Shown: in pieces, positions 9,492 through 21,207 of the stretch
Layout of the letters: each line of letters opens with the position of its first letter
Numbering within the stretch: the first letter of the stretch is position 1
Source of the DNA: a virus
Taxonomy: Duplodnaviria; Heunggongvirae; Uroviricota; Caudoviricetes
Direction: 5' to 3' (one strand)
IMG/VR virus record: IMGVR_UViG_2562617113_000013
Length of the DNA: 22,448 nucleotides
The notes under the pieces: generated by a model
Databases searched by the model: none
The model's input: only the letters and a program-made list of their open reading frames with translations
Told to the model about the DNA's origin: nothing
Translations under genes and position numbers: made by a program

Positions 9492-11258
9492 ATGAACACC
9501 ACACTGACACCCGCAGATCTCGATCCCCGTCGGCAGGCCATGCTGCTGTACTTTCAGGGATACCGCGTCGCCCGCATTGCTGAAATGCTGGGCGAGAAAG
9601 TTGCAACCGTTCACAGCTGGAAAAAACGCGACAAGTGGGGTGACTACGGGCCGCTGGATCAGATGCAGCTCACCACCGCCGCACGTTACTGCCAGCTCAT
9701 TATGAAGGAGCACAAAGAAGGGAAAGATTTCAAAGAAATTGATCTGCTGGCGCGCCAGTCGGAGCGCCACGCGCGGATCGGCAAGTTTAACAATGGCGGC
9801 AACGAAGCCGACTTAAACCCTAACGTCGCCAACCGTAACAAAGGCCCGCGCCGTCAGCCGGAAAAGAATGTTTTCACCGATGAGCAGATTGAGAAGCTGG
9901 AAGAAATCTTCCATTCCTCCATGTTCAACTACCAGCGCCACTGGTGGGAAGCCGGAAAAACCAACCGCATCCGCAACCTGCTGAAGTCACGCCAGATCGG
10001 CGCGACCTTTTATTTTGCCCGTGAAGCCCTGATTGACGCCCTGCTTACCGGACGTAACCAGATTTTCCTTTCCGCCAGCAAGGCACAGGCCCACGTCTTT
10101 AAGCAGTACATCATCGACTTCGCCAAAGAAGTGGAGGTGGAGTTGAAAGGCGATCCGATGGTGCTTCCTAACGGGGCCACGCTTTACTTCCTCGGCACCA
10201 ATGCCCGCACGGCCCAGAGTTATCACGGCAACCTGTATCTGGATGAATATTTCTGGATACCGAAATTCCAGGAGCTGCGCAAAGTGGCTTCCGGTATGGC
10301 TATTCACAAAAAATGGCGACAAACCTATTTTTCCACGCCATCCAGCCTGACACACAGTGCTTATCCGTTCTGGTCCGGTGCGCTGTTCAACCGTGGGCGC
10401 AACAAGGCCGACAAGGTGGACATCGACCTGTCCCACAGCAATCTGGCCCCCGGCCTGCTGTGCGCAGACGGGCAATACCGCCAGATAGTCACCGTGGAAG
10501 ATGCGGTGCGCGGCGGCTGTAACCTGTTCGACCTTGACCAGTTGCGCATGGAGTACAGCCCGGACGAATACCAGAACCTGCTGATGTGCGAGTTTGTGGA
10601 CGATCTCGCGTCCGTGTTCCCGCTCAGCGAGCTGCAGGCGTGCATGGTGGACAGCTGGGAAGTCTGGACCGACTTTCATGCACTGGCTCTGCGCCCGTTT
10701 GGCTGGCGCGAAGTGTGGATCGGTTATGATCCGGCAAAAGGTACGCAGAACGGCGACAGTGCCGGATGCGTGGTGGTGGCACCGCCAGCCGTGCCGGGTG
10801 GTAAGTTCCGCATTCTTGAGCGTCACCAGTGGCGCGGGATGGACTTCCGCGCCCAGGCTGACGCCATCAAAAAACTGACCGAGCAATACAACGTGACCTA
10901 CATCGGCATCGACTCGACAGGTGTCGGCCACGGGGTTTACGAGAACGTGAAAGCGTTTTTTCCAGCCGTCCGGGAGTTTGTCTACAACCCCAACGTTAAA
11001 AACGCCCTGGTACTCAAGGCCTACGACATTATCAGTCACCGTCGTCTGGAGTTTGACGCCGGACACACCGACATAGCGCAGTCATTTATGGCAATCCGTC
11101 GCGCCACCACCGCCAGTGGCAACCGCCCGACCTATGAAGCCAGCCGCAGCGAAGAAGCCAGCCACGCCGATCTGGCCTGGGCAACAATGCACGCACTGTT
11201 TAACGAACCGCTGCAGGGCGAATCCGCCAATACCAGCAATATTGTGGAGATTTTTTGA
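9492..11258 (+). CDS. P: Terminase ATPase (large) subunit gpP
   Basis: 588 aa; N-terminal HTH-like region, deviant Walker A KSRQIGAT, Walker-B-like LYLDEYFWIP, C-terminal nuclease-like region; P2 gpP-like size. Confidence 0.9.
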   Translation: MNTTLTPADLDPRRQAMLLYFQGYRVARIAEMLGEKVATVHSWKKRDKWGDYGPLDQMQLTTAARYCQLIMKEHKEGKDFKEIDLLARQSERHARIGKFNNGGNEADLNPNVANRNKGPRRQPEKNVFTDEQIEKLEEIFHSSMFNYQRHWWEAGKTNRIRNLLKSRQIGATFYFAREALIDALLTGRNQIFLSASKAQAHVFKQYIIDFAKEVEVELKGDPMVLPNGATLYFLGTNARTAQSYHGNLYLDEYFWIPKFQELRKVASGMAIHKKWRQTYFSTPSSLTHSAYPFWSGALFNRGRNKADKVDIDLSHSNLAPGLLCADGQYRQIVTVEDAVRGGCNLFDLDQLRMEYSPDEYQNLLMCEFVDDLASVFPLSELQACMVDSWEVWTDFHALALRPFGWREVWIGYDPAKGTQNGDSAGCVVVAPPAVPGGKFRILERHQWRGMDFRAQADAIKKLTEQYNVTYIGIDSTGVGHGVYENVKAFFPAVREFVYNPNVKNALVLKAYDIISHRRLEFDAGHTDIAQSFMAIRRATTASGNRPTYEASRSEEASHADLAWATMHALFNEPLQGESANTSNIVEIF

Positions 11259-11965
11259 TGCCCCCAATCCCAACTAACCTCATGACTATCGCGGGACTTC
11301 CGGTGGATAGCTCTTTCTTTGCTTACCAGTATGAGTGGAACACTGGCCCAAAGAGTAGAAACCGTGTACTCACAAAAATGCGCCAGGCAGGCGCGGATTT
11401 CTTTTTTTCCTATGAAGCCCTGAACGATGCACTGCATACCGGGCGTAACCAGATTTTCCTCTGCTGCAACACAGCATCTGCGCAGGTAATCAAAGCCTAT
11501 GTGTCAGCATTCTTAAGCCAGCCCGCAGCTTATACGCACACTGGGAAAATAAAATCAGGCAAAAGTCATCTGGAGCTTCCGAATGGTGCAGTAATTTATT
11601 TTACCGACCTCAGAAGTCTCTCCGCCGCACTCAGTGGAAATGTCTACGTGTCAGAGTATGCCTGGGCTGAATCACCGAGAAATATGATTACCCTCGCTAA
11701 AGGGATTTCTATGCACGCACACCACTACGCCACCTACTACACCACTCCCAGCCCTAACCCGGAGGCATGGCAGGAATATAAAAAGCTAAGCAGAAACAAA
11801 AGTGTAACCAGCATGGTGTTCACCGCAGATGACGCAGCAGCATCAGGAGCAATGTTGTTTACTGATAACTGGCTGAACGATATGAAAAAAGAATTATCAT
11901 CAGAGGACTGGAAAATGCTGTTTATGTGCGAATGGCCTCTCGCTAACGAGGAGCTGGCAGAATGA
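11258..11965 (+). CDS. Terminase-ATPase-domain paralog (truncated, diverged copy of the P ATPase core)
   Basis: ORF track 11255..11965 uses a TTG; the first ATG is at 11258 and overlaps the P stop. Its stop overlaps the Q start (ATGA). Aligns by eye to P residues ~150-375: FFFSYEALNDALHTGRNQIFL vs FYFAREALIDALLTGRNQIFL, LPNGAVIYF vs LPNGATLYF, VYVSEYAW vs LYLDEYFW, YYTTPS vs YFSTPS, LFMCEW vs LLMCEF. Confidence 0.6.
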   Translation: MPPIPTNLMTIAGLPVDSSFFAYQYEWNTGPKSRNRVLTKMRQAGADFFFSYEALNDALHTGRNQIFLCCNTASAQVIKAYVSAFLSQPAAYTHTGKIKSGKSHLELPNGAVIYFTDLRSLSAALSGNVYVSEYAWAESPRNMITLAKGISMHAHHYATYYTTPSPNPEAWQEYKKLSRNKSVTSMVFTADDAAASGAMLFTDNWLNDMKKELSSEDWKMLFMCEWPLANEELAE

Positions 11966-13011
11966 GCAAACGTAGAAATAATAAGCGAGCAACAACTGAT
12001 CACAATTCAAAACCAGGCAATGGCCCAACAGCAGAGGCTTTCAGCTTTGGCGATCCTGTTCCTGTTCTGGACCGCCGCGAACTGCTGGACTATGTGGAAT
12101 GCGTACAGACAGATCGCTGGTATGAGCCGCCAGTGAGTTTTGACGGCCTGGCGCGAACCTTCCGCGCCGCCGTGCATCACAGCTCCCCCATCAGTGTTAA
12201 GCGTGACATTATCAGCAGTACCTATATTCCGCATCGTCTTCTCAGTCAGCAGGCATTTACCCGTTTTGTGCAGGACTATCTGGTTTTTGGTAACGGCTAC
12301 CTGGAGAAGCGCACGAACCGGTTCGGTGAAGTTATTTCGCTGGAGCCTGCACTGGCAAAATACACCCGGCGCGGGCTTGACCTTGAAACATACTGGTTTG
12401 TGCAATACAGCCTGACGACACAGCCGTATCAGTTCACAAAAGGTAACGTCTTCCACCTGATGGAGCCGGATATCAACCAGGAGATTTATGGTCTGCCAGG
12501 TTACCTTTCTGCCATTCCATCCGCCCTGCTCAACGAGTCCGCCACGCTGTTCCGTCGAAAGTATTACATTAACGGCAGTCATGCTGGCTTCATCATGTAC
12601 ATGACCGATGCAGCGCAGAATCAGGAGGATGTGAACAATCTCCGCAACGCGATGAAAAGTGCCAAAGGTCCTGGTAACTTCCGTAACCTGTTTATGTACT
12701 CGCCTAACGGCAAAAAGGACGGGCTTCAGATCATCCCGTTGTCAGAAGTCGCAGCGAAAGATGAATTTCTGAACATCAAGAACGTGAGTCGGGACGACAT
12801 GATGGCGGCACACCGCGTACCGCCGCAAATGATGGGTATCATTCCCAACAACACTGGCGGCTTCGGTGATGTGGAAAAGGCGAGCCGTGTTTTCGTCCGC
12901 AATGAACTGATGCCACTGCAAAAGCGACTGCAGGAGCTTAACAACTGGCTTGGTGAAGAGGTGATCCGTTTTGAAGCCTATGACTTAGGACTTAAGAGCA
13001 AACGAGGCTGA
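11962..13011 (+). CDS. Q: Portal (capsid vertex) protein gpQ
   Basis: 349 aa (P2 gpQ about 344 aa); followed by a strong terminator and the candidate cos site, as expected for the cos-proximal portal gene. Confidence 0.85.
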   Translation: MSKRRNNKRATTDHNSKPGNGPTAEAFSFGDPVPVLDRRELLDYVECVQTDRWYEPPVSFDGLARTFRAAVHHSSPISVKRDIISSTYIPHRLLSQQAFTRFVQDYLVFGNGYLEKRTNRFGEVISLEPALAKYTRRGLDLETYWFVQYSLTTQPYQFTKGNVFHLMEPDINQEIYGLPGYLSAIPSALLNESATLFRRKYYINGSHAGFIMYMTDAAQNQEDVNNLRNAMKSAKGPGNFRNLFMYSPNGKKDGLQIIPLSEVAAKDEFLNIKNVSRDDMMAAHRVPPQMMGIIPNNTGGFGDVEKASRVFVRNELMPLQKRLQELNNWLGEEVIRFEAYDLGLKSKRG

Positions 13012-13048
13012 CATACTCACAACATCAATAACTGACCAATTCTCACAA

Positions 13049-13081
13049 CGCCCCAGCAGCATTCTGCGGGGCGTTTTTTTT
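13049..13081 (+). terminator. Rho-independent terminator downstream of Q
   Basis: GC stem cgcccc(a)gcag / ctgcggggcg with 4-nt loop, followed by a run of 8 T. Confidence 0.75.
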
Positions 13082-13170
13082 GTCCTGACATTTTCCCTCC
13101 TACACAAAATGAGGCCGCCAGCGGGCCAGAGGCTGCTCCGGATTTTGGCCATTTTACCCCGTTGCGCGCG

Positions 13171-13189
13171 CTCGTATCCCCGCCACGCC
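13171..13189. other. Candidate cos cohesive-end core
   Basis: Reverse complement reads GGCGTGGCGGGGATACGAG, resembling (from memory) the G/C-rich 19-nt cohesive end of P2/186-type phages (GGCG-A/T-GGCGGGGAAAGCA-). Correct position between Q and the right-arm genes. Confidence 0.45.
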
Positions 13190-13230
13190 TGCCCGCTTTA
13201 TGTAGTGGTTTTCATGCGCCTGCATGACAT

Positions 13231-13258
13231 AAGCAAAAGCCCGCCATTCCTGGCGGGC
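13231..13258 (-). terminator. Candidate minus-strand intrinsic terminator
   Basis: 7-bp GC stem gcccgcc/ggcgggc (13239..13258) with 6-nt loop; on the minus strand it is followed by TTTTGCTT. Confidence 0.35.
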
Positions 13259-13395
13259 CTCAGCTAAAACGATCCTCAAACGATCATGCGGATTCATGCG
13301 GCATAGTCATGCAGCACAATTCCTTTGCCCCACTATATCCTTTGTGGCAGAAATTGAGGAAAATGATTCATAAATACTCATATTTCGGAGGATAT

Positions 13396-14295
13396 ATGGC
13401 AGTTCTATTTTTATTTGGCGCAGGTGCGAGTTTTGGCAGCGGTCCATGTAGTCCATCCAATCCACCTCTTGGTAAAGATCTGCTTATCCGCATGCGTGAA
13501 AAAGGTGGAGTTGCTTCAACTATTGATGGCGCTCTATTGGAGAGTTTCATTGCAGATCCTGAACAAGGAATGATTAATTTTTTCAATGAACGAAATTGCG
13601 AGACAACTCACCTCCTAAAGCAGATGTGCGCCTATCTTGCACAATTTCGGGTCGAGAAAGGAAACACCTACATAAAACTGTTTAACCTATTAAAAAAAAG
13701 AAAAAACATATGTATGGCAACAACTAATTACGACCTATTAATTGAACAAGCTATATGCTCTGTTGGCTGTCTTGTTCAATATCACTCATCGAAGCGCAAT
13801 AGAAATAACATACCGGTATTAAAAATACATGGCTCAGTAAACTTCATACCAGTTGCAAATATCGTTAATATCGATTTCGAATTACCTGATTGCGAGAACT
13901 CTGCAATATTCGATGGTTCAATTGATATTTACAACGATGAGCAAGACGTGATTGCATACTGCGAAAGTGATTCTGCCCTCTCACCCGCAGTTGCATTATA
14001 TCATCCCAAAAAAAGCGTATTGCACTGCCCCTCATTTGTTAAGTATCAGCAGGAAGAGTTTCGTTCTGAGGTTGAACGTTCATCCAAGATATTCATTATT
14101 GGACTTAAAATAAATCCAAATGATGAGCATATTTGGTCTGAAATTGAAAAAACTTCAGCCGACGTCTACATAGTAGACAAGGATAAAGAATCTACTATCA
14201 CCTGGGTTAATAGCTTGAGCAAAAAGAACATTTACCACATAGCTGATACTTTTGATGAATCGATTGTGAGAATTAAAAACATTCTGCAATTATAG
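13396..14295 (+). CDS. SIR2-like (sirtuin-fold) protein; candidate NAD+-consuming anti-phage effector
   Basis: ORF track 13309..14295; start preferred at ATG 13396 (GGAGG RBS 4-5 nt upstream), giving 299 aa beginning MAVLFLFGAGASFGSG. Carries the SIR2-family motif series GAGAS ... TTNYDLLIE ... KIHGS ... KIFIIGLKINPND. Visibly A/T-rich compared with flanking phage genes. Confidence 0.65.
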   Translation: MAVLFLFGAGASFGSGPCSPSNPPLGKDLLIRMREKGGVASTIDGALLESFIADPEQGMINFFNERNCETTHLLKQMCAYLAQFRVEKGNTYIKLFNLLKKRKNICMATTNYDLLIEQAICSVGCLVQYHSSKRNRNNIPVLKIHGSVNFIPVANIVNIDFELPDCENSAIFDGSIDIYNDEQDVIAYCESDSALSPAVALYHPKKSVLHCPSFVKYQQEEFRSEVERSSKIFIIGLKINPNDEHIWSEIEKTSADVYIVDKDKESTITWVNSLSKKNIYHIADTFDESIVRIKNILQL

Positions 14296-14399
14296 ATAAC
14301 AAAACCATTATAAAGTACCAATGATGGGCTAACGCCTCGCCCCGCTCGTTGTTCAACCTTGCTGGCGTCAGTATCAAGTCCTGCCGCCAGCAACGTTCC

Positions 14400-14633
14400 T
14401 CAGTGCAGCCAGCTGTCGTCTTCCCAAACCTGCTGCATAATTTTCATCACTTGCTTCCTTTCTTCGTCCAGTTGCAGTCCGGTCAGTTCCACACCGTTAG
14501 AGCTACCTTTGCGGATACGAATTACCGTTTTGGGATACAGGGGGCGCAGATTACGGTAAAGCTCGGATTCAAGGGCGTCTAGGGTAGACTGGCTAATCTT
14601 CTGCTCTTTATCGATCATTATTTCAATGCGCAT
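14400..14633 (-). CDS. dinI: DinI-family protein (Tum C-terminal-domain equivalent)
   Basis: ORF 14400..14705; start preferred at Met 14633 (GAGGTGA RBS). 77 aa MRIEIMIDKEQ...LDALESEL...WEDDSW matches the DinI pattern (MRIE..I.K...DAL..EL...WE...W). Confidence 0.75.
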   Translation of the reverse strand: MRIEIMIDKEQKISQSTLDALESELYRNLRPLYPKTVIRIRKGSSNGVELTGLQLDEERKQVMKIMQQVWEDDSWLH

Positions 14634-14643
14634 AAAAGTCACC

Positions 14644-14832
14644 TCAACTGATGACATCCATTGAGCGGTTGTATTCGTGGGTTCTGATTTTTGCCATGAG
14701 TTCATCTGTTAGTTCAGAAACCCACTGCAAAGCCAGCCCCTTCTCTTCATCACTACACTCACTAGCCGCTACAAGCTTAAGAAAAAAATCAATGCGCTGG
14801 AGCTTCAAAGACTCCAAAAAATAGTCCTGCAT
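14644..14832 (-). CDS. Small SOS-inducible protein, possible Tum-like antirepressor N-terminal module
   Basis: ORF 14644..14934; start preferred at Met 14832 (AGGAGG RBS 4 nt upstream), 62 aa. Immediately downstream of a LexA box and upstream of dinI-like gene in same operon. Function inferred from context only. Confidence 0.5.
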   Translation of the reverse strand: MQDYFLESLKLQRIDFFLKLVAASECSDEEKGLALQWVSELTDELMAKIRTHEYNRSMDVIS

Positions 14833-14873
14833 CTTTCCTCCTATGACACCACAAGAAATACTGTATACATAAC

Positions 14874-14893
14874 CACTGTTTATATTTACAGTA
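14874..14893. promoter_or_regulatory. LexA (SOS) box
   Basis: cACTGTtTATATtTACAGTA: CTGT-N8-ACAG with A/T-rich centre, 17/20 match to the TACTGTATATATATACAGTA consensus; sits about 45 bp upstream of the small-gene start on the minus strand. Confidence 0.8.
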
Positions 14894-14985
14894 TATAATA
14901 ATCTTACTGATGTAAAACGTTTTTTTACGTTCATCAGCCTGATATGCCTGGTATTATTAAGAGCACGGATTGTTAACCCGCGTGA

Positions 14986-17400
14986 TTAATACAGGTTCCG
15001 CCACTTATCATCTTCCTGCAAACGCTGGTTCCGATAGAAGATACGCAGGCCTGCTCCTGACGGAATACTGCCACCGCGAAGGAGCAAATCGACCTCTTTC
15101 TCGCTGCCATCAAATCCTCTGGACTTCAGTTCATAGACGAGCTGCTGACGCTGATACTCTGTAATTCGCTGTTTGTAGTCTTTACGCCGTTTCGGTTTAA
15201 CTAGGCGTAATCTTGCTGCCAGTTCCCGGCGCTCTTTTTTGCTCATACTGTGCAGGTAATCGTGCAACTCCTTGTCATCCATGCTGGTGATATCCGTTCT
15301 GGTATCCCCATCAGCTGATTTGTCTTTCCCTTGTTGGTTCAAATTTTCAGCAAGGGGACAGTTATTGCCACGAGTCCAAGGGGCGCAAGCGCCCTGGTCG
15401 GCTGCCGCCTCCTGAACGTCAACGGCCTTACGAACCATTTTCCACTTCACGGCATGAGTGCAGATCTTGCCCTCTGCAATAGGTGACCAGATGCCATAAA
15501 TACGAATGCCGTGATCGCCATAGGCGGTCGGCTCTTCGTTGATTTCATAAGCAGTTCTGATGAGGTGATATTTGCGGGGAACCAGTACGCCACCCTGCTT
15601 CATGATGTAGGTGGCAAAACAACCAGCATCAGCAGCAGCCAGAATGGCATCAAGGCGCGGGTTATCCAGTACCGGCGCACCTGCTTTTTTGTCCCCCTGT
15701 TGCCTTGCCGCCTGACCAGCCAGCAATCGCAGTTCACGGTAAGCCTGACGCCCCGGAATGCCAAAGAAGCGGAATTGCTGAACACGATGCAGAGACGCCC
15801 AGGCATTAACGTATTCAGCATTATCACGCAGGGATTTCCCCGTTTCCTTGCTGATCTCGCCAGCCAGACCACGCCCGTCAATGTTCTTACTGATGTATTT
15901 CGCGATGTAGCTTGTTGGCGTACCTTTGCGCGGATTAATCAGCTCAGACTGAAAGCGCGGCCCCGTGTTATTGCCCAGCTCCTCGCGGTCTTCACGGATG
16001 GCAAAGTTACGCAGTAATGCAGTGATGGCGCGACGGTCTTTTTTGCGCATAAAACACAACAGGTGCCAGTGAACTGTACCGTCATGATGCGGCTCAGCCA
16101 CCCGCACGCCATACCACCGCAATCCGGCTTTGTGCATTGCCTTACGAAATGCAGCAAACATGCCGACCAGATAATCACTGCTTTGTCTTACCGTCGCATT
16201 TGTCCAGGTCGGGTTGGGCCTGCCGTTATTTAGCGTGGAATGGAAACGTGACGGACAGGTGATGGTGTAGAAAACGGCGCAGTCACCGCGCATTTCCGCG
16301 ATAAGCTCCAGACCTTTAACACAGGCCATCATCTCATTGCGGCGATGCGCAGGGTTGCTGCTGCTGGCGTTTACCACATCCTCCATGTCCAGCGTGTCGC
16401 CGTCTTCGTTCACCAGTTCATGAGAACGGAAAAACTCCAGCGACTTACGGCGCTGCTCACGTTTATGCATCACGGCTTCATAGCTGACATAGGGAGATGC
16501 TTTTTTGCTGACAAGGCAGACAGCACGCAACTGCTCTTCCCGCCATTCGCAACGCATCTTCCATAATTTCCGATACCACCAGTCGGCGCACAACATACGC
16601 GCCAGCGAACCCGGAATGAGTTCATAGGGCACGGGTTTACGGCGGTTTCTTTTCCGGCGGAGTTGCTCAAACGCAGGCGGGATGACATCCAGACGCAGGG
16701 TTTCCGCTGCCACCTTTTCCCATGTCTTGCGGATTTCTTCTGGCTTAACGTCATCGGTGGCATACAAATCGCCACAAGCGGCATCAAGGCACATACTCAT
16801 ATGCGCAGCTACCAGGGTGGACAGGCGTTTCACCTGATCCTGACTCATTTCAGGCAGGATCAGCAGGCCGTCCAGCCCTTCATGGCTTGCCATAAAGCGA
16901 AAAGATGCAGATAGCTGACTGTCGCGTACATGCTCCAGTCGTTCCAGACATGGCTTAATCGTCTCACGTAAATAGCGGGAATAAGCCTTTGGCCTGCCCA
17001 GGCTGCTGAAGTATTCAATACGTTGCATCAGCGGCTTGCTGATATGGGAAGGCTGGGCGTTGACGTCCGCCAGAATGACCATATCCGGATTAAAACGCTG
17101 CTGCTCATGCGCCAGCTTTGCCCGGCTAATGAGCTTATCTTGTTCCATTTCGCGCTGGACAGGATCACGGGATTCATTAAAGAAATAACGCTCCCAGACC
17201 TGATCACTCAGCGCCTCACGGCGCAGCTGTTCCTGCTCGTTATCGGCAGCGTACAGAGTGATCAGGTTTGAAAGCGTAGAAACCGGCGCAACTTCCACCG
17301 GGTCCAGATAAGGGTTAATGGCCTTTTTCGGGCTGTTCCATGAGAACGATGCGGCAGCTTCGTTAAAGCCGCAGCAGTTGTTCATATCGGCATGACTCAT
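14986..17400 (-). CDS. A: Replication initiation endonuclease gpA (rolling-circle Rep)
   Basis: 804 aa; contains [12 protein letters not shown] (Y-x-x-K-Y catalytic tyrosine motif of P2 gpA-type Rep proteins); ATGA overlap with dam stop. Confidence 0.85.
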
Positions 17401-18254
17401 GCACGTACTCCGTACACGGCAGAACTATCCACGCCACGCGAATAATCAAATCCCACCCAGCAGCGCGGCCCGGAAACAGCAATGATTTCTGTTGCTGATT
17501 TGCCCTCGCCAGCTGCCACACCGATGCTGCGTTTTGCCTTGATGTAGTGGTGAGTAAAATTGCGATACAGCGAACGGATCAGGGATGTGTCACTGTTAGA
17601 AACAATGACCGGATGTCCTTCTGATGACCGATGTTCAAGAACAGATGCCAGGTGATACTGGTCATCTTCAGTGAAGCCGTCAGTGTGATAGCCGGAAAAC
17701 GTACCGTCATACGGCGGATCGCAATACACCACATCCCCCGCCTTCAACATCGCCAGCGTTTCATCAAAGCTGGCGCAGATAAACGTTGCTCGCTGGGCCT
17801 TTTCTGCAAATGCGTGAATTTCTTTTTCAGGGAAATACGGATTTTTATAATTACCGTAGGGAATGTTGAAATGCCCGCTCTTGTTATAGCGACATAAACC
17901 ACGGTAACCGTGACGATTGAGATACAGGAAATATACCGCTTTCATGAAATCAGTAATTTCAGTTGAGTAATTAAACTCCTGCCTTATGTTGTAATAAGCC
18001 ACCTCCCTGTTTGCGATCTCAAATAAAACTCTGGCGCGAGATATAAACGATTCACAATCAGCGGCAACCTTTTTATAGAGGTTGATTAAATCAGGATTAA
18101 TATCCGCAACCAGATAGCTGGGATAATCCGTCTCCATCATCACAGCACAGGAACCCGCGAAAGGTTCAACCAGTCGCGGGCCAGCAGGAAGATGTTTTTT
18201 CAGTTCGGACATTATGGCAGTTTTATTTCCCGCCCATTTCAGGATGGTGCTCAT
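17397..18254 (-). CDS. dam: DNA adenine methyltransferase (Dam family)
   Basis: ORF 17397..18314; start preferred at Met 18254 ([11 protein letters not shown]), ATGA-coupled to the upstream zinc-finger gene. Motifs KWAGNK, PFAGS and DPPY. Confidence 0.85.
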
Positions 18255-21015: not shown

Positions 21016-21207
21016 ATGCTTGGTAAGGTATTTTTTGTGGTTTTGTCATGTTCTTTGTTATTAAACCCACTAACTACCTATGCTAGAAATTATCCCTGCT
21101 CAGGGAAAAAGGGAGGTGTTTCTCACTGTACCTCAGATGGCAAATTCGTTTGCAATGATGGAACTATTAGTAAATCCAAAAAAATCTGTACTAAAAACTC
21201 ACGATAA
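21016..21207 (+). CDS. Small secreted Cys-containing peptide (cargo gene in lysogenic transcript)
   Basis: 63 aa; strong RBS GGGAGGAA 6 nt upstream; N-terminal signal peptide ([23 protein letters not shown]), basic mature part of about 40 aa with 4 Cys; A/T-rich. Confidence 0.55.

Follow-up and report, generated by a model that had tools for sequence, protein, structure and literature searches.

A 186-like (P2/186-type) prophage of Escherichia coli A38 carries, beside its cos region, a swappable cassette with exact junctions, and the gene in this cassette encodes a 299-residue protein that has a SIR2 fold and the conserved motifs of an NAD site. On balance we lean towards an autonomous single-gene SIR2 ('SIRim') NADase, kept by the prophage as a cassette for defence or superinfection exclusion. 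Judged from fold, motifs and genomic context, the protein, whose family is uncharacterised, would most likely protect its host by destroying NAD+ during infection. All positions below refer to the window, the whole stretch of 22,448 nucleotides that was analysed, and the features discussed are collected in Table 1.

Table 1 Features of the cassette and its flanks in the window
Feature	Position	Strand	Basis or remark
Portal gene (gpQ/W type), left hotspot landmark	11962..13011	+	PGAP; Pfam Phage_portal
Intrinsic terminator after portal gene	13047..13083	+	-20 kcal/mol, z-score -5.7, U8 tail
Conserved non-coding cos block, left cassette border	13153..13313	.	84-92% identity in P2-family phages
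cos cohesive-end-like sequence GGCGTGGCGGGGATACGAG	13171..13189	-	Read from sequence
Terminator-like hairpin and U tract, for leftward transcripts	13232..13262	-	-25.2 kcal/mol, z-score -3.9, then UUUUGCUU
Cargo cassette	13314..14327	.	1,014 bp, 37.4% G+C; gene plus 82 bp upstream and 32 bp downstream
Shine-Dalgarno-like GGAGG	13387..13391	+	4 nt 5' of ATG 13396; read from sequence
SIR2-fold (SIRim-type) gene	13396..14295	+	299 aa plus stop codon; single domain, without extra sensor domain
Strong hairpin between convergent SIR2-like and DinI-like genes	14355..14397	.	Inverted repeat I3; -24.7 kcal/mol, z-score -5.0
DinI-like gene (186 tum-type position)	14400..14633	-	PGAP 'DinI-like family protein'; Pfam DinI E 6.7e-23
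62-aa hypothetical gene, first of DinI-like operon	14644..14832	-	PGAP
LexA-box-like palindrome CTGTTTATATTTACAG, upstream of DinI-like operon	14876..14891	.	CTGT-N8-ACAG pattern
Replication gene A, right hotspot landmark	14986..17400	-	Pfam Phage_GPA E 1.6e-127

A swappable cassette in the cos-proximal hotspot

Homology with related prophages and phages ends at 13312/13313 and restarts at 14328/14329. Between the same junctions phage 500465-1 has an empty slot of 7 bp, and at identical junctions the sibling prophage L064 holds a 3.3-kb SIR2-HerA module; no convincing direct repeats were found at the cassette junctions. An empty site, a lone SIR2 and a SIR2-HerA at one position would add an example of cassettes that replace one another between fixed borders of the cos-proximal hotspot. 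The cassette is the lowest-G+C 1-kb stretch of the window (37.4% versus 52.7% in the rest), which bears out an earlier sequence-only reading of this DNA that had described the gene as much more A/T-rich than the flanking phage genes.

The left border is a non-coding block that is conserved in P2-family phages of Klebsiella, Salmonella, Yersinia and Escherichia. Inside it, GGCGTGGCGGGGA is read on the minus strand at 13189-13177; these first 13 nt of GGCGTGGCGGGGATACGAG are what we take to be the start of the 186 cohesive end. The full P2/186 cohesive-end consensus GGCGNGGCGGGGAAAGCA was not found at up to two mismatches, and the cos assignment is based on the 13 nt, their position and the conservation of the 160-bp block. 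A simple terminator scan overlooked the hairpins, which were revealed by folding. The terminator-like one, beyond the cassette on the side of cos, is part of the conserved backbone, as is the strong hairpin downstream of the gene, which has a U tract on neither strand. The right-hand neighbour is the DinI-like gene, convergent with the SIR2-like gene, and the 62-aa gene of its operon is kept in all sibling prophages examined. CTGT-N8-ACAG has a single match in the window, with 0.29 expected by chance. The SIR2-like gene is on the plus strand and the DinI-like, 62-aa and A genes are all on the minus strand, so the opposite orientation to the right neighbours was read correctly.

The gene thus has the portal gene as its left and replication gene A as its right landmark, and sits next to cos in a slot whose content varies between otherwise near-identical phages, as is characteristic of hotspot cargo. 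This gpA-gpQ slot is a reservoir of anti-phage systems and holds old/tin together with validated defence systems (PMC9122126, Rousset et al. 2022). The placement at the cos-proximal cargo position, where P2 has old/tin, was therefore right, and the description of the context as unusual was overstated, given how well known this position is as a hotspot of defence genes. With P2 old/tin and the other gpA-gpQ cargo the gene shares the locus, the orientation with respect to cos and the principle of variable cargo for exclusion; the Old and Tin proteins themselves are unrelated to the SIR2-like product. Old is an ATPase-nuclease, and Tin targets the single-stranded DNA-binding protein of T-even phages.

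Among 5,426 E. coli genomes the gene occurs in 4 and the 186-type A gene in 1,289, which corresponds to only about 0.3% of 186-type prophages. The gene is rare cargo and not a core gene; the outcome that the sequence-only reading had set against its own proposal, a conserved core gene in all 186-like phages, is not what was found. In this slot there are at least four alleles, with identities of 42-100%; those at 70%, 67%, 51% and 42% sit in prophages of E. coli and Klebsiella. Homologues in Vibrio and Pseudomonas adjoin the integrase of P2-like prophages, and a Pantoea homologue sits at the end of a lambdoid-type prophage. All members examined in Enterobacterales, Vibrio and Pseudomonas are prophage cargo, and P2-type prophages with the family occur in E. 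coli, Salmonella, Klebsiella, Enterobacter, Vibrio and Pseudomonas alike. A tblastn search of 50,697 deposited phage genomes returned no homologue.

Given that the gene is phage-borne, it might serve the phage itself, with the SIR2 fold binding or destroying NAD-derived immune signals or remodelling host metabolism during the phage's own lytic cycle. The SIR2 fold does bind ADP-ribose-containing ligands, and the promoter search revealed none of the kind usual for lysogenic-conversion genes. Still, we regard such a counter-defence or pro-phage role as very unlikely, because slot and orientation are those of old/tin-type exclusion genes, convergent with the early/SOS operon, because homologues also occur outside phages, beside restriction and CBASS-type genes, and because of the absence from deposited phage genomes and the rarity among 186-type prophages. 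We know of no SIR2-fold anti-defence protein.

Gene, fold and family

The open reading frame at 13309-14295 on the plus strand was confirmed. Read from ATG 13396 it gives the 299-aa product that had been proposed; this start is the choice of PGAP (WP_140442209.1, 'hypothetical protein') and agrees with the GGAGG ahead of it and with the N-termini of the relatives, which begin M-x-x-LFLFGAGAS. A 328-aa reading from ATG 13309 was rejected, as it starts in the conserved phage backbone, beyond the cassette border at 13313/13314, with an extension that is absent from homologues. The frame is not a chance one, given a probability of ~1e-10 for 328 stop-free codons at the local base composition (calculated from composition) and a dN/dS of ~0.08 versus the 70%-identity allele (pN 0.175, pS 0.721), a ratio that marks a gene under purifying selection. 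The low G+C, the annotation as a hypothetical protein and the sub-threshold model scores described below would also suit an ORF left over from horizontally acquired A/T-rich DNA and now decaying or without function. That reading is barely credible and is, for practical purposes, refuted by the conservation data: hundreds of contigs and ~900 clusters have the frame intact, the catalytic motifs are invariant, dN/dS is low and the predicted fold is of high confidence. A scan of 12950-15100 found no sigma-70 consensus promoter in the cassette or its surroundings, so the gene is only presumed to be expressed in the lysogen.

All four motifs named by the sequence-only reading are found in the 299-aa protein (GAGAS at 8-12, TTNYD at 109-113, HGS at 145-147 and IIGLK at 233-237), which thereby has the glycine-rich NAD loop after strand 1, the catalytic Asn (xxNxD) and the catalytic His (HG). 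In an alignment of 40 relatives, down to 33% identity, G8, G10, A11, S12, N111, Y112, D113, K143, H145, G146, S147 and G236 are invariant, and likewise D243, H245, I246 and W247 (D-HIW). GAGAS, N111/D113 and H145/G146 align with the same motifs of PsSIR2 and ThsA.

Structure prediction, which had been suggested as a check, supports a SIR2/Rossmann fold. The AlphaFold2 model of the 299-aa protein (pLDDT 94.2, pTM 0.91) has a predicted Rossmann-type alpha/beta/alpha fold with six parallel strands, similar to solved SIR2 structures, and a Foldseek search of the model against the PDB reached E 9e-10, with HerA-dependent SIR2 proteins as the best structural matches (for example PDB 8w9l, 8j4u and 8sub). 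A family profile searched against the PDB matched the SIR2 of SIR2-HerA (E 3.8e-4) as well as ThsA, through TTNYDLL and K-HGS, and hhalign aligned the family with the SIR2 of the sibling prophage's SIR2-HerA at 91% probability (E 1e-6). In the viral BFVD fold library the matches were classical viral sirtuins only, at E around 1e-6. The SIR2 fold occupies the whole 299 aa of the model, with no fused sensor domain and with a predicted helical insertion of ~75 residues (about 26-100) after the first strand.

A SIR2 fold could also modify proteins, in this case as an ADP-ribosyltransferase (SirTM-like) or a deacylase that acts on one host or phage protein without bulk NAD+ loss, in lysogenic conversion or targeted exclusion. 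Several features make this unlikely. The family alignment has neither the zinc-binding Cys quartet of classical sirtuin deacylases (CobB, Sir2, SIRT1-7) nor any invariant Cys, C189 being the sole nearly invariant one, and hence no sirtuin zinc module. The loop after GAGAS lacks the GIPDFR-type cofactor loop of sirtuins, which counts against this activity too. TTNYD, K-HGS and the helical insertion are typical of the immune NADase branch, and there is no macrodomain or lipoyl-carrier neighbour, unlike in SirTM operons.

The searches with profile models, the other check suggested, gave weak evidence for this protein: the SIR2_2 match falls just under its cut-off and the PADLOC matches are partial. 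Pfam SIR2_2 (PF13289) scored 23.6 bits (E 6e-5), below the 24.5-bit gathering cut-off, with the match limited to residues 136-178 of the 328-aa ORF; many close and distant relatives have a precomputed PF13289 match. By these profile scores the family is borderline for SIR2_2 (the 'SIRim' immune branch), rather than excluded. None of the PADLOC defence models gave a convincing score for the window protein or any of the 40 aligned relatives (best E ~4e-9), and the matches of the window protein are short, each covering only part of a model. Two weak and co-linear ones (PDC-S21, a 336-position profile, positions 249-294 versus residues 245-289 of the 328-aa ORF; PDC-S25, positions 76-187 versus residues 72-178), with E-values of only 1e-4 to 1e-9 across 40 family members, point to possible distant SIR2-like relatives, the matches being too partial for membership. 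ThsA models match the window protein at E 7e-3 only, over the motif region. For AbiH, neither Pfam PF14253 nor the PADLOC model matched at E <= 1 (window protein) or E <= 1e-3 (40 relatives). An NCBIfam search of the window protein gave no match, and PHROGs gave one weak match, to a family of unknown function.

The family comprises 902 clusters at 50% identity, nearly all of ~300 aa and single-domain. As the sequence-only reading had claimed, no sensor or partner gene is adjacent; the rest of the window and the related prophages lack a partner as well. All other window proteins were scanned with PADLOC and Pfam, which found no HerA, TIR, Argonaute or other partner, and the sole defence-model match is a Dam-type orphan methylase. 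When the neighbours of ~40 distant homologues were clustered, no protein family recurred overall; the only recurrent neighbour is an 81-aa zinc-ribbon-like ORF (CxxC...CxxC), which abuts or is fused at the upstream end at six distant loci and to which nothing in the window is similar. Given these six homologues, the SIR2 fold of the family may not always act alone. Some distant loci adjoin defence genes (a type III Res directly upstream in two and patatin/TPR-S in one), CBASS effector-model matches occur among the neighbours of distant homologues, and many distant homologues sit amid housekeeping genes.

The same six loci, the HerA-dependent best structural matches and the SIR2 plus ATPase in the same slot of the sibling prophage would all fit an orphan effector, that is, a SIR2 NADase that needs a partner encoded elsewhere (for example an ATPase of the HerA type, a small protein with a zinc ribbon, or an enzyme of the host or another element that makes a signal), leaving the cassette alone inert. 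We find this distinctly unlikely, since the prophage contexts examined (Escherichia, Klebsiella, Vibrio, Pseudomonas and Pantoea) contain no partner, the window has neither a zinc-ribbon ORF nor a PADLOC component, the gene is under strong purifying selection, and a gene that travels from host to host with a phage would be expected to work on its own. Nor is the gene a recent HerA-less derivative of SIR2-HerA, given that BLASTP identity to the L064 SIR2 is limited to the TTNYDL motif.

A candidate single-gene NADase

For the reading that we favour, an autonomous SIR2 NADase, the following course of events may be envisaged. The lysogen would make the SIR2-like protein in an inactive state, and an infecting second phage would switch it on, probably when a phage component binds directly or the oligomeric state changes, in either case through the helical insertion; the protein has no separate sensor domain. 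Once active, the protein would hydrolyse NAD+ via Asn111 and His145, and the loss of NAD+ in the infected cell would abort the infection. The gene would then be a superinfection-exclusion or abortive-infection module, to the benefit of prophage and host. Less firmly, the SOS-controlled DinI-like operon has its backbone terminator past the cassette, so that read-through from this operon on prophage induction would run antisense to the gene and could damp its expression. The favoured reading is weakened by the HerA-dependence of the nearest structural relatives, the low profile-model scores, the lack of a sigma-70 consensus promoter, the six homologues with a zinc-ribbon-like ORF, the housekeeping contexts and the lack of a homologue in phage genomes.

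A bolder version, which we put forward tentatively and with more doubt than belief, is that the gene is the founding example of a widespread family of minimal, sensor-less SIR2 immune enzymes in which ~300 residues suffice for sensing infection as well as for destroying NAD+. The sensing would then proceed via the family-specific helical insertion or via filament or oligomer assembly induced by the trigger, the P2/186 lineage would use the enzyme as interchangeable exclusion cargo, and SOS-driven antisense might silence it on prophage induction. The sister clade with the 81-aa zinc-ribbon partner would show the gain or loss of a sensor or regulator, and the ~900 clusters at 50% identity span several bacterial phyla.

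If the protein is protective alone, it would be among the smallest known SIR2 immune proteins, with 299 aa and without sensor domain or partner, and a convenient system for studying how a bare SIR2 NADase stays silent and senses infection. If the favoured reading is true, it would also add a defence family that is missed by PADLOC 2.0 and NCBIfam and borderline in Pfam. As SIR2 NADase defences and the hotspot are both already known, the value is incremental and not conceptual.

Comparison with known SIR2 systems

The literature searched contains no experiment on the window-protein family. Among the supplementary-table rows of PMC9122126 that were searched there are no family accessions, and the single-gene SIR2 pFR88 tested in that study, which comes from a P4 satellite, differs in its N-terminus (MPNNYHQ...GSGLTKRY) and is a member of another family.

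In SIR2-HerA (Nezha), the operon has an adjacent HerA ATPase, whereas no such gene is found in the window, where the cos block and the convergent DinI-like gene flank the SIR2-like gene. The SIR2 of that system forms a dodecamer onto which HerA docks, and it needs its ATPase partner; it is also larger (about 350-400 aa versus 299 aa) and shares with the window protein an identity of 15-19%, in the motifs only. Thoeris ThsA has SLOG/Macro fused to SIR2 and acts with the TIR-domain protein ThsB, whereas the window protein is unfused and the window contains no TIR match. DSR1/DSR2, Avs5 (SIR2-STAND), SPARSA SIR2-APAZ and KomC have either a fused sensor (solenoid, STAND or APAZ) or an obligate partner, and the window protein is without both.

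Single-gene SIR2-fold defence is already known from AbiH, sole-Sir2 and DSR1/2. For sole-Sir2, likewise a small stand-alone Sir2 protein, the purified protein turns NAD+ into ADPR, and one of its homologues makes E. coli resistant to T2 and T4 (bioRxiv 10.1101/2024.12.27.630466). Compared by description only, sole-Sir2 has ~440 aa, its extra N-terminal region is the proposed sensor and its C-terminal Sir2 domain is DSR2-like, whereas the 299 aa of the window protein enter the Rossmann fold from residue 2. The closest architectural precedent is AbiH of Lactococcus, which is also a single gene on a mobile element with a small predicted SIR2/SIRim fold; its anti-phage activity has been demonstrated (PMC13064643), and it is counted among the sirims (bioRxiv 10.1101/2024.09.18.613514). 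The window protein has no detectable match to the AbiH models of Pfam or PADLOC. AbiH is hosted by ICEs of Firmicutes and the window-protein family by proteobacterial prophages.

Cargo slot and source prophage

The window covers a 186-like (P2-family) prophage, with the tail-fibre genes at one end and the integrase at the other, and carries a complete P2/186 set by Pfam (capsid, GPO, terminase, portal, GPA, CII/CP76, CI, Fil, DinI and integrase). E. coli A38 (NZ_CP028738.1) matches both the SIR2-like gene and replication gene A with 100% identity, and its annotated gene order agrees with the window. Homology to relatives breaks at 13312/13313 and returns at 14328/14329, with phage backbone on both flanks. 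The intervening cassette of 1,014 bp has a G+C content of 37.4% compared with 52.7% elsewhere, making it the lowest-G+C 1-kb stretch of the window. Escherichia phage 500465-1 has an empty site, with 7 bp between the two junctions, and in the sibling prophage L064 (gene A 99.4% identical) identical junctions enclose a SIR2 and an ATPase gene, which together constitute SIR2-HerA. Nearer cos, the same prophage has a gene with the annotation GTP pyrophosphokinase. Lone SIR2 alleles of 70%, 67%, 51% and 42% identity fill the slot in further 186-like prophages of E. coli and Klebsiella, and Salmonella, Citrobacter and Enterobacter also yield cluster members. The Vibrio and Pseudomonas homologues each adjoin the integrase of a P2-like prophage, and the Pantoea homologue is located at one end of a lambdoid-type prophage.

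These junctions and alleles bear out the sequence-only reading, which had placed an A/T-rich gene at a variable cos-proximal cargo position, on the strand opposite to its right neighbour; the gene is indeed convergent with a DinI-like gene. It is rare cargo rather than a core gene, being present in 4 of 5,426 complete E. coli genomes (two with the window allele) compared with 1,289 that have a 186-type gene A. The slot corresponds to the gpA-gpQ hotspot described by Rousset et al. 2022 (PMC9122126), which holds old and tin in P2 and several cargoes shown to be protective. A counter-defence or pro-phage role for the SIR2-like gene is highly improbable.

Phage 500465-1 also has a TIR-domain gene, which lies to the portal side of cos, so cargo is possible on both sides. 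In related prophages the cI-int interval holds additional cargo (an AAA_15/AAA_21 ATPase with DUF4276; a SNIPE/T5orf172 protein) and looks like a second variable slot; in the window it contains only a 63-aa ORF. Between the terminase large subunit and portal genes lies a 236-aa ORF, a diverged paralogue of the ATPase part of the neighbouring terminase (residues 142-368; 32% identity, E 1e-30); Pfam Terminase_6N matches two window proteins. Found in A38 and prophage L011 and missing from comparison loci L002 and L003, it may be a gene that interferes with packaging or the occupant of another small cargo site.

The minus strand of the conserved block that borders the cassette towards cos includes GGCGTGGCGGGGA, which we take to be the start of the 186 cohesive end. 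In 500465-1 the 7 bp separate this terminator-bearing block from a conserved stretch starting about 70 bp past the stop codon of the DinI-like gene; the window has its cassette there. The sole CTGT-N8-ACAG (LexA-box-like) site in the window (0.29 expected by chance) fits an SOS-controlled operon of the 186 tum type. Because the terminator for leftward transcripts lies beyond the cassette and the hairpin between the convergent genes lacks a U tract, we infer that SOS-induced read-through could run antisense over the SIR2-like gene.

Features of the window and of comparison loci (L-numbers; positions without one refer to the window)
Feature	Position	Strand	Remarks
236-aa ORF	11255-11965	+	
Strong intrinsic terminator	13047-13083		End of portal gene
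Conserved block	13153-13313		
Hairpin with U tract	13262-13232	-	Backbone terminator for leftward transcripts; -25.2 kcal/mol
SIR2-like ORF	13309-14295	+	Start ATG 13396
Hairpin without U tract	14355-14397		
LexA-box-like site	14876-14891		Just upstream of 62-aa/DinI-like operon
Replication gene A	14986-17400	-	
Dam-type orphan DNA adenine methylase	17397-18254	-	Early operon
63-aa ORF	21016-21207		
SIR2 (347 aa) and ATP-binding protein (619 aa)	L064:1372-4271		E. coli LR9-2, NZ_CM188245.1
TIR-domain protein	L065:2010-2438		Escherichia phage 500465-1
cI-int cargo	L004:15718-16927; L011:14393-14981		L003/L005: after cI gene
Type III Res subunit, roughly 1,013 aa (RE_endonuc + ResIII)	L028:6946-9987; L030:6946-9984		SIR2 homologue starts 2 nt after
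81-aa CxxC ORF	L036:605-850; L039:9756-10001; L041:1900-2145; L043:9746-9991; L045:9753-9998; L050:2702-2941		

Constraint and fold

The start predicted by the sequence-only reading, giving 299 aa, agrees with PGAP, with the equivalent Met in relatives and with a GGAGG 4 nt 5' of the ATG. A start at ATG 13309 lies beyond the cassette border and is rejected. Comparison with the 70%-identity allele yields pN 0.175 and pS 0.721, hence a dN/dS of ~0.08: the ORF is a real gene under constraint. No consensus promoter was found for it; that the gene is dead is scarcely credible.

Existing sequence models barely detect the protein. A SIR2 match had been anticipated, and PADLOC returned one, albeit short, together with short matches to PDC-S25 and PDC-S21; Pfam SIR2_2 stayed below its cut-off (23.6 versus 24.5 bits), and NCBIfam gave no match. 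All four motifs named from the sequence are present, with key residues invariant in 40 relatives at identities down to 33%, as is a further motif, D243-x-H245-I-W247. An AlphaFold2 model built with the 40-sequence alignment is confident (pLDDT 94.2, pTM 0.91) and has the anticipated Rossmann core, six-stranded, with a helical insertion after strand 1 (about residues 26-100) and a second at about 150-211. The family profile retrieves the SIR2 of SIR2-HerA and ThsA from the PDB through TTNYDLL and K-HGS, and hhalign pairs it, at 91% probability, with the SIR2 from the sibling prophage's SIR2-HerA. The family alignment has no conserved Cys quartet and therefore no sirtuin zinc module. Taken together, these results place the protein on the immune (SIR2_2, 'SIRim') side of the SIR2 fold described by Bonhomme et al. 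(bioRxiv 10.1101/2024.09.18.613514). Protein ADP-ribosylation or deacylation as its activity is unlikely.

Partners and distant relatives

Among the other 30 window proteins, neither PADLOC nor Pfam detects a HerA, TIR, Argonaute or STAND protein, in line with the claim that no partner gene is adjacent; the only other PADLOC match was the Dam-type orphan methylase. A word-indexed search gave 187 relatives, and an exhaustive one extended the family to 902 clusters (50% identity; E <= 1e-3), 601 of them with E <= 1e-10; the best 150 are almost all around 300 aa and aligned end to end. Public labels are 'hypothetical protein' or 'SIR2 family protein'.

Around ~40 full-length homologues from many phyla, BLASTP detected no P2-like prophage, and no neighbour family was shared. 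Many sit amid housekeeping genes and some adjoin defence genes. In two Flavobacteriales MAGs a type III Res gene lies directly upstream, which may be an operonic link to restriction-modification; elsewhere neighbours include a patatin/TPR-S protein (one locus) and matches to CBASS effector, DpdF and mad models. In six loci (Bacteroidota, Balneolaceae and Acidobacteriota MAGs, among others; SIR2 identity 27-33% in the five measured) a conserved ORF with two CxxC pairs and no Pfam family abuts or overlaps the SIR2 start. Such loci represent a two-gene form of the family; the window has no counterpart of the ORF. Dependence of the window protein on an unlinked partner is quite unlikely.

Proposed mechanism and known systems

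The gene encodes an enzyme of the SIR2 fold that is under constraint and retains its Asn/His site, and it forms lone, exchangeable prophage cargo in a defence hotspot. The original observation is confirmed, and its interpretation as a putative defence effector is supported. Given the biology of ThsA, DSR2, SIR2-HerA, Avs5, KomC, FAM118B, AbiH and sole-Sir2, we consider, with modest confidence, that the most likely mechanism is phage-activated NAD+ hydrolysis with aborted infection: the protein would be kept inactive until a phage cue switches it on, through direct binding and/or assembly, whereupon it would hydrolyse NAD+. Fold and location will not surprise a specialist; the gene is a good, cheap candidate for experiment. 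Our literature search found no paper testing this family.

The protein falls outside every named system and lacks the hallmarks of Thoeris, DSR, Avs5, SPARSA, SIR2-HerA and classical sirtuins. Its closest relative by structure is the SIR2 of SIR2-HerA. By architecture it is closest to AbiH, a small single-gene, validated Abi with a predicted SIR2/SIRim fold (PMC13064643), although AbiH models do not match it, and to sole-Sir2, an NADase of about 440 aa (compared with 299 aa here), a homologue of which protects against T2 and T4 (bioRxiv 10.1101/2024.12.27.630466). The family is best regarded as uncharacterised, compact and partner-less, within the known SIR2 kind.
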